A DNA stretch of 64,000 bases. Source: Eledone cirrhosa (lineage: Eukaryota). A program made the position numbers and the translations under genes. The notes under the pieces are model-generated. The model did not search any database. It was not told where the DNA came from and saw nothing but the letters and a program-made list of their open reading frames with translations. The stretch is from NCBI GenBank assembly GCA_964016885.1, contig OZ024742.1, positions 345,588,001 to 345,652,000 of the forward strand. Direction: 5' to 3'. Of the stretch, positions 16,990 through 40,625 are shown one piece after another; the first letter of the stretch is position 1; each line of letters opens with the position of its first letter.

Positions 16990-17040
16990 AGTTTCAGAAG
17001 ATCCCGTTAAGGGTGAAAGCAGCGATTCTTTGGTTAAACT
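16990..17040 (+). ncRNA. Type I hammerhead ribozyme (degenerate) in the PLE 3' pLTR
   Basis: AGTTT cAgaaga T-CCC-gttaa-GGG-T GAAA GCA..TGG TT AAACT. The core has U4->A. The inverted copy at 14013-14035 preserves stem III (AGCA/TGCT). Confidence 0.65.
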
Positions 17041-19334
17041 TTAATCTGTTATTTTAATAACTATTTGCTCTACGGTTCTTATATATTTGATATATATTTT
17101 CCTTATCGAGCCCTCTTTGGATTTTAGTCTTCAATGTTATTATTATTACTATATATATATATATATATATATATATAAACCACTACTGAACACGAAAAAA
17201 TGAATTAACACTCGGAGGTAAAATTCCATTTCACTACCCCCCCCCCCTCTCTTCTTATGTGTACACATGAATATCTGAGTGAAGGGGGAGACACACACAA
17301 ATATGTGTGTAGGTATGTATGGATGTATGTACGTGTGGGTATATATGTATGTGGGTGTGTGTATGTGTGTGTATATATATGTATGGATATGTGTATGTTT
17401 GTATATGTGTGTGTGTATATATATATATGTGTGTATGTGTGTATATATGTGTATATGTATATGCATGTATGTGTATGTTTGTATATATATATGTGTATAT
17501 ATATATATATATATACAGATATATGTTTATATGTGTGTGTATGTATATGTATGTATCTATATATATGTGTGTGTGTGTATGTATGTGCATATATGTATAT
17601 ATGCGTGTACATATATGTATGTTTCTGTATGTGTATATGTATGTATGTATGTAGATGTATGTATATATATGTATATATATATATATATGTGTATGTATAT
17701 ATATGTCTTTATGTGCTTGTTTGTACACATATATATATATGTGTGTGTATGTATGTGTGTGTATGTATATATATGTATATATATATACATATATATATAT
17801 ATATATATATATATATATATATATATATATATATATATATATATATGTATGTATGTATATGTATGTGTATATATGTATGTGTGTATGTATGTATTTGTAT
17901 GTGTACGTGTATGTGTATGTATGTATGTATATATATATATATATATATATATATATATATATATATATATATATATATATATATATATATATATGTATAT
18001 ATATATAGATGTATGTATATGTGTATATGTATGTACATGTGTGTATGTGTATGTATGTGTTTATGTGTACATATATGTATATATATATGTATGTGTGTGT
18101 GTATATGCCTCTCTCTCTCTATATATATATATATGTGTGTGTGTATGTATGTGTGTGTATGCATGTATGTGTGAACGGAGGTATTTATACGGACATATGT
18201 ATATGTGTGTGTGCGTGTGTGTGTGTGTGTGTGTATGTGAGGCGTGTATGTGTATATATATGTATATTTAGTTATGTATCTTTATGTGTGTATATGTTGT
18301 ATATGTATGTATGTATATATATATATACCCATGTGGAGGTATGAGTACATATTCGTGTGTGTACGTATGTGTATATGTGTTTTTATATGTGTCTTTATAT
18401 GTTTTTATGTATGTATGTGGATGTATATGTACATGGGTGTGTGATTGATGGAGTGTGCCTATATATTCCTACATATGCCCGTGTTTATATGTATGTATAT
18501 ACGCACATATGTGTATGTTGAACAAAGGGCTAATTTTGGGATGGACGTAGAAAAATTCTTCAGAAAAAAATAATTGTTTACAAACTTGGCAGGTGCGGTT
18601 TGCCTATGACCATTCTCAACACAAAGGAATACTAAAAGCTTTTTCCCCTGAATAAAGGAATTTTTCGAGAATGACCGGGGCAGGCCGCACTTGCTACATT
18701 TCTCCCCACCCAACCCTACTCACCGTCTCAACTCATTACTGCTATTAACACTTTTTCAACACACCTACACCCCTACACTTATTAAAGGGGGAGAAAAAAA
18801 ACCCACCACAGACATGTTAAATCCCTATATATAGAACAACACACCACATACACATCAGTTTGACAAGCGCACCTCAGCGTGAAAGGTCGTTCTAAAAACG
18901 AAACAATACCTCCTACGCTAACCAAGAACCCCTAAGACCTAACCAACAACCAACAACTTAATTTATAAAATAATAAAACATTTTCTAAGAAAAAATTTTT
19001 CTAATCCGGAAAAAAATTCTTTTTGGATTTTGTGAAGAAAATAAATTTGTTGAAAGCACAAGTGAAGCCATTTTTTTCTTCCACCCTGTCTTAATATACC
19101 TAACTGTACCAAGGATTACACACATTTCCAATATATATATATATATATATATATATATATATATATATATATATATATATATATATATATATATATATAT
19201 ATATATATAAATATATATATATATGTATATATATATGTATATATGTATATATATATATATATATATATATATATATATATATATATATATATATATATAT
19301 ATATATATATATATATATATATATATATATATAT

Positions 19335-19583
19335 ATGTATATGAATGTAAGTATAGTATATTTGGCAATATACCGTATGTTTAATTAAAAACATTTACTT
19401 CCTGATTATTACTGGAATTCTATAAGAATCCAGCTTCTATAATTATCGCCGAATGCCAACCAGCCTGAAACAAACTGATAGCGTAAGGTCTTCTAAATGT
19501 TTTTAATTAAACATACGGTATATTGCCAAATATACTATACATACATTCATGTATACATTGCTATTTTAGAGCACCAATCCTAA
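19335..19583. mobile_element. Short (TA)n-flanked fold-back element (second copy 28165-28430)
   Basis: tagtatatttggcaatataccgtatgtttaattaaaa mirrored at 19495-19552. Confidence 0.75.
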
Positions 19584-19692
19584 TATATATATATATATAT
19601 ATATATATATATATATATATATATATATATATATATATATATATATATATATATATATATATATATATATATATATATATATATATATATAT

Positions 19693-19835
19693 TAGAAAAA
19701 GTCATGTCCCGTCGGCTGAGCTCTTGCCGTTTCAAGAAGCCGTTGGGTCCTAACTTTTTCTAATATAGTCATTCTCTACTATCCCAAGTATCGGGTACTC
19801 TGTTGAATAATGAATGGTCTTACTACATACTACAA
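19693..19835 (+). mobile_element. Short fold-back element family C (copies 26553-26655, 28450-28595, 41085-41275)
   Basis: Shared cc(c)gacggctgagctc(t/c)..gccgtttc motif, terminal inversion and (TA)n flanks. Confidence 0.7.
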
Positions 19836-20548
19836 ACATAGGTACGCACGTACATACATACATATATATATATATAAATATATATATATATATAAATACG
19901 TACAGACAAAAGCGCATGCATGCGTACATACATACACACGAAGCACATATATATATATATATATATATCGCCACATGTATATCTTATCACACGTACGTAC
20001 GCCACTATACATATATATATACATACACACCTATAGATACATATACATATATATATATATATACATACATATACACATACATTCACCCACATACAGACAC
20101 ACGTATAAATAAGTATGTAAAAAACATAGATATAAAAACACACATACACACACATATACGCACACACGCACACATACGGAAGCGTTCGTATACATATACA
20201 GAACGCATACACACACATGCATATTCACACGCATAGATACAAATTATAAACTAGCCGTATGAATAAATGAGTACAAATATAAAAGCGGCTGCGAAACAAC
20301 AGAATATATCTGGAGTTGAAAACGGAAGTGACATGTCATATCAGGTAGTGAAAGAAAATGGGGAAGTAAAATGTGGAATGTGAAGATATTAGGTAAGTGA
20401 ATCAAAAAGTAGGGGGGAGGGGGGTTCACTGGTGGATGTGAAGTAAAAATAAAAGTTAAACAAAATTTAAAATAAAGTTAAAAATGAAAGTAAATCAGAA
20501 AGAGAAGTCTGTATGGAGGATAATTTAAGGAAAGTGAAGAACAAGAGT

Positions 20549-20858
20549 TTATGGAGGATAAGTATCTGAAAGTGAGTTAAGTTTATATGAGCTGGAAAGC
20601 AAGTGTGATTCCATGTGTGGGCAACTGGTGAAAATTTCTGTTTTTGCGTTTAGACAGGTTTTTGGTGATTTAAAGTTCTGTAAAATCCAATATTTTTCAC
20701 TTATGCAGAGTGTGCATCTTCTTTTTCCTCTTGCATATTCTTTAGATTGGTTCAAAATTGACCAATCCAATTTATATTGGATACCTTGGTCTTTCAAATC
20801 CCATATTCTGCTAGCCAGAGCTGTGGTTAATCTTTTTTCTGGATGTCGGAAAGATGCG
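20549..20858 (-). pseudogene. C-terminal GIY-YIG fragment of a third PLE
   Basis: SFRHPEKRLTTALASRIWDLK...W.IL...CTLCISEK...LNAKTEIFTSCPH aligns by eye with the C-termini of the other two PLEs. Confidence 0.85.
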
Positions 20859-39145: not shown

Positions 39146-39739
39146 TCGTTTTTTGTGTGTATGTGTTTGTTTGTATGTATATGTGTATATGTATATGTAT
39201 GGGTATATGTGTGTGTACATGTGTGTATGTGTGTGCAAGTGTGAACATCTGTGTATGTGTATATGTGTGCATGTGTGTACATGTATACATGTGTGTATGT
39301 ATGTATATATGTGTATGTATGTATGTGTGTATACGTGTAAATCGGTGTTCGTGTGTATATGTGTATATGTGTATATGTGTATATCTTTGTGTGTATATAT
39401 GTATGTAAGTATATGTTTGAGTATGTATGTATATGTTTGTGCGAATGTGTGTATGTATATGTGTGTGTGTGTATATGTGTGTGTGTATGTATGTATATGT
39501 TTGTGTGTATATATATATGTATGTATAGCTCTGTGTGTATATATATGTATGTATATGTTTGTGTGTATATGTATGTATATGTTTGTGTGTATATGTATGT
39601 ATATGTTTGTGTGTATATGCATGTATATGTTTGTGTGTATATGTATTTATATATGTATATATATGTCTATGTACACGTTGATTGCTGAAGAGATAGAATG
39701 GAATAAAATTAAACGTTAAAATACGTCAGAATTAACATC

Positions 39740-40005
39740 GCCACCACCATCACCATCATCAACACCATCAATACCACCACCAACACCTCCACTACCACTA
39801 CCATCATCCCACCGCCACCACCACCACCACCACCACCACCATCACCACCACCTTCCCCACCACCACCATCGCCCCCACCATCATCACCCCCCCCCCCACA
39901 CACCCCACCCCACCCCATCGCCACCACCATCATCACCCACCCCCACCCCGACCACCACCCCAACCCCACCACCAGCACCACCATCACCACCACCATCATC
40001 ACCAT
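39740..40005. repeat. (CAC)n / C-rich tract
   Basis: Direct reading. Confidence 0.85.
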
Positions 40006-40330
40006 TAACCTCAACATTAGTGCAGTATATTCCCACAAACGTACTAACCATTACTTTGCCTATAAAACTATTTATCTCTTATTTTCTGCCTATTTTATAT
40101 TCTTACTTAATGTTGGTGGCCACTATTACTTCTCTATGTTAGACTACTATAGGTTAGTTAAGACAGATGGCTCAGTGGTTAGGGCTTTGGGTTCTGTATT
40201 GTAATGTTTATAATTACATGTTTTGTGGAGATTATTTGGAAGTTCTTGTAAATATATATATATATATATATATATATATATATATATATATATATGTAGG
40301 GAAATGTGTGAGATCCTTGGTACAGTTAGG

Positions 40331-40450
40331 TATATTTGAAAAAAAGGAAAAGAATGACTTCACTTGTAGTTCTAAACAATTTGATTTAATATAATATTAT
40401 GAGTCGGTAGATCTCTAGTGAAGTCATTATTTTCCTTTTTTTCAAATATA
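40331..40450. repeat. Inverted repeat, about 34-bp arms, in a (TA)n-flanked insert
   Basis: tatatttgaaaaaaaggaaaagaatgacttcact / agtgaagtcattattttccttttttcaaatata. Confidence 0.8.
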
Positions 40451-40562
40451 TATATATATATATATTAGGTAATTCCGAAGAAAAAGCAAAGGAAAAAAGA
40501 GTGCTCTATGTATAGAACAGAGCTATTTAATTAGAGAGTGAACAACACAATATATAACTATT

Positions 40563-40625
40563 CCATTACGAAAGGTTTCTGGGCCCTAGACAATATTAAT
40601 ATACGTCTGGATCGTTCATCAGACA
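40563..40625 (-). ncRNA. Degenerate hammerhead motif
   Basis: Minus strand: tgt CTGATGA acgatccAGAC..GTCTagggccca GAAA cctttcg TA atgg. Base of stem II is mismatched and stem I is short. Confidence 0.45.

Follow-up and report, generated by a model that had tools for sequence, protein, structure and literature searches.

The closest described counterparts of the elements reported here are Penelope-like elements (PLEs) of the Hydra clade, whose diagnostic features are an endonuclease of the GIY-YIG type located C-terminally, RWK and DKT motifs, a CxCX5C linker, the lack of a CCHH motif, CxxC and CxH motifs, canonical hammerhead ribozymes (HHRs) and (TA)n targets (PMC8557442). The same study (Craig et al. 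2021) describes inverted copies and one-sided tails for Hydra elements, lists Hydra-1_Obim of Octopus bimaculoides in its supplement, and describes Naiad PLEs as having an N-terminal GIY-YIG and no canonical HHRs. Here we analyse a stretch of 64,000 nucleotides from Eledone cirrhosa (assembly GCA_964016885.1, contig OZ024742.1, positions 345,588,001 to 345,652,000 of the forward strand), hereafter the window, in which an earlier note had placed a hotspot of about 19 HHR motifs from about 10 unrelated families between positions 16990 and 40625. We conclude with high confidence that this region holds at least nine insertions of PLE ends into (TA)n, that six of the families involved are linked to reverse transcriptase (RT)/GIY-YIG genes with Hydra motifs, and that four non-coding families likely borrow their enzymes.

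Three further systems are relevant. Minimal PLE hammerheads are described as comprising many HHR families per genome, mostly as single truncated PLE ends (Cervera and de la Pena 2014, PMC4209133). Non-LTR retrozymes were defined by Cervera and de la Pena 2020 (PMC7229834) and are reported to derive from the pseudo-long terminal repeats (pLTRs) of PLEs (Li, Clavereau and Pollet 2026, 10.64898/2026.07.22.740005); eight of nine Xenopus retrozymes in the latter report showed no cleavage. In the Poseidon element PAc of Anolis, studied in vitro, two internal RT start sites bound the tail and HHR mutants still insert (Frangieh et al. 2024, PMC11167929). For cephalopods, 31 recently active Penelope-like families are reported in Octopus vulgaris (PMC13282606), in a main text from which the words hammerhead and ribozyme are absent. 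Our literature search, whose coverage did not extend to subscription journals, found no paper on the abundance of hammerheads in cephalopods and none describing conserved twin hairpins for Hydra elements.

Hammerhead motifs and the PLE families that carry them

We searched the window with a strict type I HHR descriptor (CTGANGA, stem II, GAAA, stem III, TH and an anchored stem I), in which bulges in stem I must be permitted for the minus-strand motif at 36112 to be caught. Sixteen motifs passed, all between 21353 and 36150 and none elsewhere in the window. Six are on the minus strand (starting at 21353, 24592, 29941, 31116, 35057 and 36119) and ten on the plus strand (22809, 23119, 23429, 23739, 24049, 30130, 30682, 33715, 35246 and 35573), and all have an intact CTGANGA/GAAA/TH core with stems I to III. 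Tandem units and inverted pairs are counted repeatedly in this total, so the 16 motifs reduce to nine independent insertions. Five further motifs are degenerate but genuine homologues of the intact HHRs. These are the plus-strand motifs at 16990 (core CAGAAGA), 21044 (core CCGACCA), 25679 (core intact, stems weakened) and 29068 (cleavage site TG), and the minus-strand motif at 40563 (core intact, stem I truncated). Every motif listed in the earlier note lies within about 30 nt of the coordinates it gave, although its list totals 21 rather than about 19; the core it described as kept throughout is intact in the 16 strict motifs, and two of the five degenerate ones keep the core with faulty stems.

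The hammerhead motifs of the region are real. The strict descriptor gave no hits in 100 block dinucleotide shuffles of 16990-40625 compared to 16 in the actual sequence, and a looser scanner gave a mean of 0.01 hits on shuffled sequence. For covariation, we aligned 18 related variants, of which 13 were chosen via flanking sequence outside the ribozyme (the core was present in 15 of the 20 sequences picked this way, two of which were dropped because the motif contained an indel) and five related rows were added by hand. In this alignment 94% of cells are paired and 11 of the 21 pairs show two-sided changes. None of 500 shuffles scored as high, and pairing fell to 36-53% once the alignment was slid. 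The comparison with shuffled sequence and the inspection of cores and covariation, both proposed in the earlier note, thus came out in favour of genuine ribozyme motifs. Its statement that stem III is often palindromic also stands, with a full palindrome in families D, G, H and I and in most copies of family E (CCATGG), except that both family E HHRs in the window read CCCTGG. An Rfam scan of the window returned a single hammerhead match, the minus-strand motif at 36112, at 29.1 bits and under the gathering score of 34. The other Rfam matches were microRNA models hitting microsatellites and were disregarded.

We sorted the motifs into 11 families (A to K) and searched the genome for each, which gave 188 to 3314 first-look candidates per family (these are not copy numbers), of which the best 9 to 30 loci were examined. 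Contrary to the earlier note, some of the families are related: F, B and K form one related group and G and H another, the motifs at 29068 and 30675 (both plus strand) belong to a single element, and the inverted pairs at 29934/30123 and 35049/35238 represent subfamilies. The proposal that all inserts are (TA)n-targeted holds for nearly all ends, which have (TA)n flanks, but not for the left end of family C, which adjoins (GA)n.

Six families (A, B, F, G, H and J) represent the ends of autonomous elements, whose 5'-truncated ends make up most of the short "dependants" of the earlier note. That note tied two families to RT/GIY-YIG open reading frames (ORFs); genomic copies tie all six. Family A (13985-17150, plus strand) is a nearly full-length Hydra-type PLE with a broken RT/GIY-YIG ORF at approximately 14029-16040, a long 3' untranslated region (UTR) and a tailed 3' end at 17150. 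It begins with a short inverted pLTR stub without a tail (13985-14030) and so reaches past the left limit of the region as first drawn. Its HHR variant (16990-17040, plus strand) has stem I AGTTT/AAACT and a CAGAAGA core (U4A) that is identical in 29 of 29 genomic copies, themselves 97-99% identical to the window copy; the ORF lies upstream of the end in nine of these copies and downstream in four. The family B insertion (19840-21222, both strands) combines an inverted part (approximately 19840-20860, minus strand, with a GIY-YIG fragment at 20549-20926) with a pLTR end on the plus strand whose HHR is degenerate (CCGACCA at 21055-21061). The same ORF lies upstream of the end in 15 of 29 family B copies, and the core reads CCGAYGA in 21 and CTGACGA in six of them.

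Family F (28975-30840, plus strand) comprises the 3'UTR and pLTR of a Hydra-type PLE, with a decayed internal HHR (29074-29119), an intact HHR (30682-30727) and a hairpin, discussed below, at 30776-30798. In two other genomic copies (loci L003 and L180) an ORF with RWK and DKT motifs directly follows the pLTR. Family G is represented by an inverted pair at 29810-30225 (HHRs at 29941, minus, and 30130, plus) and its subfamily G' by another at 34921-35345 (35057, minus, and 35246, plus). Ten of 30 family G copies have their own ORF upstream, and open frames of 640-678 amino acids were seen between inverted arms of family G loci. Family H (30978-33815, plus strand) is a 5'-truncated Hydra-type PLE with a frameshifted ORF (31221-32322), an HHR at 33715-33764 and an inverted, tailed 5' arm carrying a second HHR (31116-31165); the ORF link was found in eight of 19 copies as well as in the window. 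Family J (35966-36700, minus strand) is the 5'-truncated end of an autonomous element with a classical HHR (36119-36150). Its genomic units are organised as pLTR-ORF-pLTR over 4.2-4.7 kb, and the ORF starts 26 nt past the end in six of 29 copies. Full-length or near full-length loci were found for F, G and J. The matched end has a (TA)5 tract no more than 170 nt away in 8/9 copies of F, 29/30 of G, 22/29 of J, 25/29 of A and 27/29 of B. Strict HHRs occur in all copies of F (9/9), G (30/30) and H (19/19) and in 27/29 of J, but in 0/29 of A and 6/29 of B. The link between each family and a PLE that the earlier note hoped for was therefore obtained for these six; C, D, E and I have no ORF of their own and K has no parent.

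In the encoded proteins the RT is followed by a C-terminal GIY-YIG (A, F, G, H and J; in B via an endonuclease fragment and linked RT matches). The N-terminal motifs are RMRWKA and SDKT in F, RIRWRA and ADKT in J, and RLRWRA and SDKT in A; the N-terminus was not recovered for B, G and H, so the RWK/DKT reading covers A, F and J. A CxCX5C linker is present in F, G, H and J, with its first C changed in the window copy of A. A CCHH motif is absent (the stretch from the GIY- to the YIG-like motif has a single C at most), and CxxC and CxH flank the conserved E and N in B, F, H and J (G has CxxC with CLH). The closest database relatives of these proteins are 31-53% identical and three are labelled Argonauta hians. 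Among the protein-atlas neighbours listed, PF01541 occurs in 21-38% of members in five of nine rows. A Pfam scan of eight window ORFs, which are fragments, gave no RT or GIY-YIG match, and a PDB sequence search gave no match below E 0.7.

The motifs of A, B, F, G, H and J fit the Hydra clade as described (PMC8557442), judging from the sequences. They share with it the C-terminal GIY-YIG, RWK-type and DKT motifs, CxCX5C, the lack of CCHH, CxxC/CxH around E and N, a canonical type I HHR close to the 3' end, insertion into (TA)n and inverted 5'-truncated copies with a single tail. They differ from that description in having many more families per genome, long microsatellite-rich 3'UTRs (up to 4.7 kb in total), longer stems II, tails of approximately 65-145 nt, fixed U4A or U4C cores in two families and a conserved twin hairpin. 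The earlier note's view that pLTR hammerheads of PLEs take TA tracts as targets is borne out by the ORF links and the (TA)n flanks. Its Naiad attribution is not, because the endonuclease is C-terminal and the HHRs are canonical, whereas Naiads are described as lacking canonical HHRs (PMC8557442).

Several points weigh against the overall interpretation. Hydra membership is read from motifs. J and A read RWR instead of RWK, and the 4.2-4.7 kb of J exceeds the "<3 kb" described. The loci examined are the best matches of each family and are biased towards young, query-covering copies. Folding is better than in shuffles at z <= -2 for only five of 14 motifs, which weighs against stable folding of the monomers.

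Other PLE-like sequences were also seen. A different PLE group, in which a zinc finger of the CGRTNCGTC type precedes the endonuclease, is represented by fragments at genomic loci L180 (9345-9998, minus strand), L015, L026, L154, L240 and L300, which appear Neptune-like by the motif description in PMC8557442. In the window, a TA-flanked element at 12003-13630 has inverted and tandem arms (97% complementary over 620 nt). Its end, which has a similar counterpart in locus L007, carries CTGATGA with GAAA approximately 28 nt upstream and recalls the Naiad "HHR half core" described in PMC8557442.

Insertion ends and twin hairpins

The mapping of 3' ends uses only families F, A, J and I; for C, E, G, H and K the reference sequences extended into TA tracts, and the resulting counts were spurious. 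The mapped ends form two groups, each just upstream of one of two hairpins of the form RCTC...GAGY. Altogether, 166 of the 169 ends have a hairpin no more than 18 nt downstream (18/18 in F, 84/86 in A, 24/25 in J and 40/40 in I). In family A, 37 of the 86 mapped ends lie just upstream of the first hairpin (GCTC...GAGC; 17067-17113, plus strand), where the tail starts. The second RCTC...GAGY hairpin opens the 5'UTR in F, A, J and I, the families with a tandem junction. In family C the second hairpin reads GCTC...GAGT, and in family E we found by eye GCTC/GAGC and TCTC/GAGA hairpins after its two ends. The twin hairpins sit 30-65 and 115-210 nt past the hammerhead cut. Across 50 HHR clusters, the hairpin RCTC...GAGY(RC), in the versions ACTC/GAGT and GCTC/GAGC, follows the HHR in 16, compared to 0.5 expected from shuffles and four found upstream. 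End positions are blurred by TA microhomology, and family J offers two candidate second hairpins.

Head-to-head insertions usually have one tail. Among 101 such insertions from eight families, 92 have one tailed arm, six have neither arm tailed and three have both. One-tailed inverted pairs and hairpin-linked ends fit the two-site internal initiation shown for the Poseidon element. As in PAc, two apparent RT starts flank the tail and an AT-rich target would be cut on both strands; HHR cleavage is unneeded for PAc insertion in vitro (PMC11167929). PAc, however, starts in an AC-rich stem-loop within its ORF, whereas the ends mapped here are found 5' of the ORF and upstream of a pair of RCTC...GAGY hairpins common to several families, including non-coding ones.

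Of 250 breakpoints mapped on the upstream (5') side, approximately four are no more than 3 nt from the HHR cleavage site, although some breakpoints reflect subfamily divergence and the queries favour longer copies. Such a low number indicates that the cDNA crosses the cut, and hence that the template is either uncut or re-ligated. One way to explain the crossing is that cleavage and re-ligation into a circular RNA are obligatory for all families, with the circle as template. This would agree with the intact cores and covarying stems kept across many families, with the stable fold predicted for the family D monomer as a circle (z = -4.8) and with the circular retrozyme RNAs reported in other animals (PMC7229834). 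We nevertheless consider it unlikely as a general rule, as family A has spread with its fixed U4A core, most family B copies (21/29) carry U4C, and HHR mutants left insertion unaffected in vitro (PMC11167929); genomic copies, moreover, are unable to distinguish circles from uncut tandems. U4C has considerably lower activity in vitro yet supported a viroid (PMC3088659), and the main text of that paper does not mention U4A. An obligatory circle may apply to the retrozyme of family D alone.

On balance we lean towards a reading in which Hydra-type PLEs position the RT by the twin hairpins, which define the two cDNA start sites (of the tail-less and the tailed ends), retention of both hairpins is what allows the non-coding C, E and I to be mobilised, and HHR catalysis is dispensable, the last because family A spread with a U4A core. 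Three observations count against it. The hairpin motif was defined after inspecting the same ends. It is present in just 16 of the 50 HHR clusters, many of which are single copies shortened by TA tracts, and it is absent from family D (0/187 copies).

As for the likely mechanism, the GIY-YIG endonuclease would nick (TA)n DNA, as the flanks and the literature suggest, and the RT would begin inside a tandem transcript. It would do so at either of two positions located 3' of the pLTR, and an RCTC...GAGY hairpin, the putative signal, follows each of them within a few bases. Both nicked strands would prime synthesis, giving a head-to-head insertion with one tailed and one tail-less end. Copying passes the HHR cleavage site and mostly ends early, so that short HHR-bearing stubs predominate. 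As insertions keep TA tracts at both ends, and some in the 3'UTR, later elements could land beside or inside them and build up local hotspots. Self-cleavage would probably be weak, dimer- or protein-assisted, and not needed for insertion.

Non-coding families

No ORF of their own was found in families C, D, E and I, where the longest ATG-initiated ORFs in the copies read are 30-89 codons. Family C, a unit of approximately 1.4 kb, is present as an inverted pair (21299-21722, both strands) with the tail on the right, an intact HHR at 21353-21417 (minus) and a decayed partial copy near 21530-21595 (plus). Family E (24318-26258, both strands) is a unit of approximately 0.66 kb in partial tandem and inverted copies, with a strict HHR at 24592-24669 (minus) and one with weakened stems at approximately 25685-25762 (plus). 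Family I (35390-35675, plus strand) is the end of a 2.4-2.8 kb PLE-like unit with an HHR at 35573-35622 and an inverted tail fragment at 35390-35510. These three units (0.66-2.8 kb) are longer than the retrozymes described in PMC7229834.

Family D (22703-24243, plus strand) consists of 4.7 head-to-tail units of 310 bp, lies between TA tracts and includes a short inverted 5' stub; its five HHRs are all intact and have CGCG as stem III. The unit is non-coding with 34% GC. Genome-wide, it forms dispersed head-to-tail arrays with 99-100% identity, and a strict HHR was found in 24 of 26 units examined. Being a dispersed, non-coding tandem repeat whose units fall in the 150-450 bp range and each carry a type I HHR, it is a non-LTR retrozyme by definition. 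It resembles described retrozymes in its low-GC head-to-tail units and dispersed arrays, for which PLE origin and mobilisation have been proposed, but differs from them in its PLE-style inverted 5' arms and TA flanks (PMC7229834); it is known here from DNA alone. The head-to-tail joint was present in 4/4 sequencing runs, in contigs that cannot separate a circle from a tandem array. A single 340-nt contig matching the unit in three low-depth runs under other organism codes is not interpreted.

Other TA-flanked elements have ends approximately 75-80% identical to the 3' end of retrozyme D, and in two of them an HHR-like core lies upstream. In the window, short inverted-arm insertions without an HHR at 19343-19582 and 28170-28430 have a 3' end approximately 78% identical to that of D, and their relatives at loci L194 and L373 carry HHR cores upstream. 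From this resemblance, it is possible that this group includes the partner of retrozyme D. A D-type end was found in none of nine loci with Neptune-type endonuclease hits.

Family K (40464-40630, minus strand) is a very short tailed end with a truncated HHR. Strict HHRs are present in 16 of its 29 genomic copies, and PLE fragments with 44-66% identity lie near four of the 29 loci in inconsistent placement.

The C, D, E and I units likely borrow the enzymes of autonomous PLEs, and trans-mobilisation would account for their spread. Two results speak against a complete account on these lines: no autonomous partner was found for retrozyme D, and no parent element for K, with no linked ORF in its 29 copies. 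The earlier note had proposed autonomous PLEs plus many short ribozyme-bearing dependants. Autonomous and non-coding families do coexist, but six families are ORF-linked and C and I are 1.4-2.8 kb long. The stronger version, in which most families are short non-coding parasites dependent on ribozymes and served by a few Naiad-type PLEs, could draw on the PLE-style tandem and inverted insertions of C, D, E and I, on D as a young dispersed tandem retrozyme and on the missing ORF link of K. We find it improbable, because A, B, F, G, H and J end ORF-bearing elements, contradicting it for six of 11 families, and because the endonuclease position and the canonical HHRs speak against Naiads as the source.

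Density, neighbouring sequence and significance

As background we used 79 evenly spaced 10-kb stretches (790 kb) of the 3.0-Gb genome, which contained 46 strict HHRs (one per 17 kb, at most four per stretch), compared to 0-1 in each of three shuffled sets. The density in the region is approximately 12 times background by motif and seven times by insertion (nine in 23.6 kb compared to 42 in 790 kb), figures that carry the caveat that the 23.6-kb interval was picked post hoc. There are five strict HHRs in the 100 kb on either side. The region has approximately 1.7 times the mean density of TA tracts (58 in 23.6 kb compared to 14.7 per 10 kb), which by itself cannot account for the whole excess. 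The HHR excess is real, and the hotspot represents the upper tail of a pattern found genome-wide. A (TA)5 tract lies within 300 nt downstream of 89% of the 46 background HHRs compared to 21% of random points. In the 1.5 kb around copies of these families, HHRs belonging to other families number 110 over 237 loci (770 kb), a rate of 0.143 per kb that is 2.5 times background, and TA tracts are twice as dense. Clustering near other copies is thus generic. Nesting can be seen directly in the family G pair at 29810-30225, which sits in a TA tract within the family F 3'UTR and is absent from the same site in other F copies (loci L003 and L007); in a further F copy (locus L002) an H fragment sits in a neighbouring TA tract. 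The hotspot claimed by the earlier note therefore stands as a local excess, set against a high background, generic clustering and an interval chosen afterwards.

An alternative is a special ribozyme cluster at this locus, under selection or actively targeted, such as a regulator of a host transcript through it. The unmatched motif count, the sparse flanks, an excess beyond TA density and a nearby receptor exon would suit this, but it is highly improbable given that all 11 families have hundreds to thousands of first-look candidates elsewhere and that the motifs are mixed in orientation, include five degenerate ones and cluster generically in an interval picked afterwards. The exon (43199-43756, minus strand) belongs to a rhodopsin-family G protein-coupled receptor (PF00001, E 2.5e-19) and has a GTAAGT donor facing the HHR cluster; later exons were not found downstream of it, and an intronic position of the cluster is therefore not established.

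A general repeat search of the window was dominated by microsatellites. Between families C and D (21730-22672) lie a SINE-like repeat and a 217-amino acid ORF fragment, which we presume to resemble the end of a LINE ORF (no database match); the ORF at 22019-22672 was ruled out as a PLE protein, being unrelated to it. A short repeat family between TA tracts (19693-19830, 26550-26680, 28450-28590 and 41090-41270) shares CGACGGCTGAGCTC, with a hairpin at 41190-41255, and no HHR core was found in its four window copies. From 44900 to 56000 and beyond, a degenerate satellite of more than 11 kb consists of GTT runs and ATAGAACT, which is why the right third of the window is without HHRs and TA tracts. 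Elsewhere in the genome, a frequent HHR family without a window copy (L359, 2941-3146; L377; L352) contributes eight of the 46 background hits in two clusters and has a long stem III, a stem II resembling that of retrozyme D and an ACTC...GAGT hairpin.

Because the association of PLEs, hammerheads and (TA)n is already published and an octopus Hydra family already listed, the headline finding is not new. What is new are additional Hydra-type PLE families, a retrozyme and longer non-coding derivatives, of a kind already known. The opposite-strand pairs 100-700 bp apart, palindromic helix III and long helix II are shared with minimal PLE hammerheads (PMC4209133). The scale differs, with at least 50 HHR sequence clusters in less than 2 Mb of sampled DNA and an extrapolated 1.7 x 10^5 strict HHRs (Poisson interval 1.3-2.3 x 10^5) in 3.0 Gb compared to thousands per genome described for minimal hammerheads; this scale is comparable to that of the axolotl, for which up to 120,000 retrozyme copies are reported in a much larger genome (PMC7229834). 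The twin hairpins offer a candidate, open to test, for the feature that fixes the two RT start sites of PLEs and for the one that non-autonomous derivatives need to retain to move. If this is true, they would be a transferable cis-signal for a class of retroelements related to telomerase.

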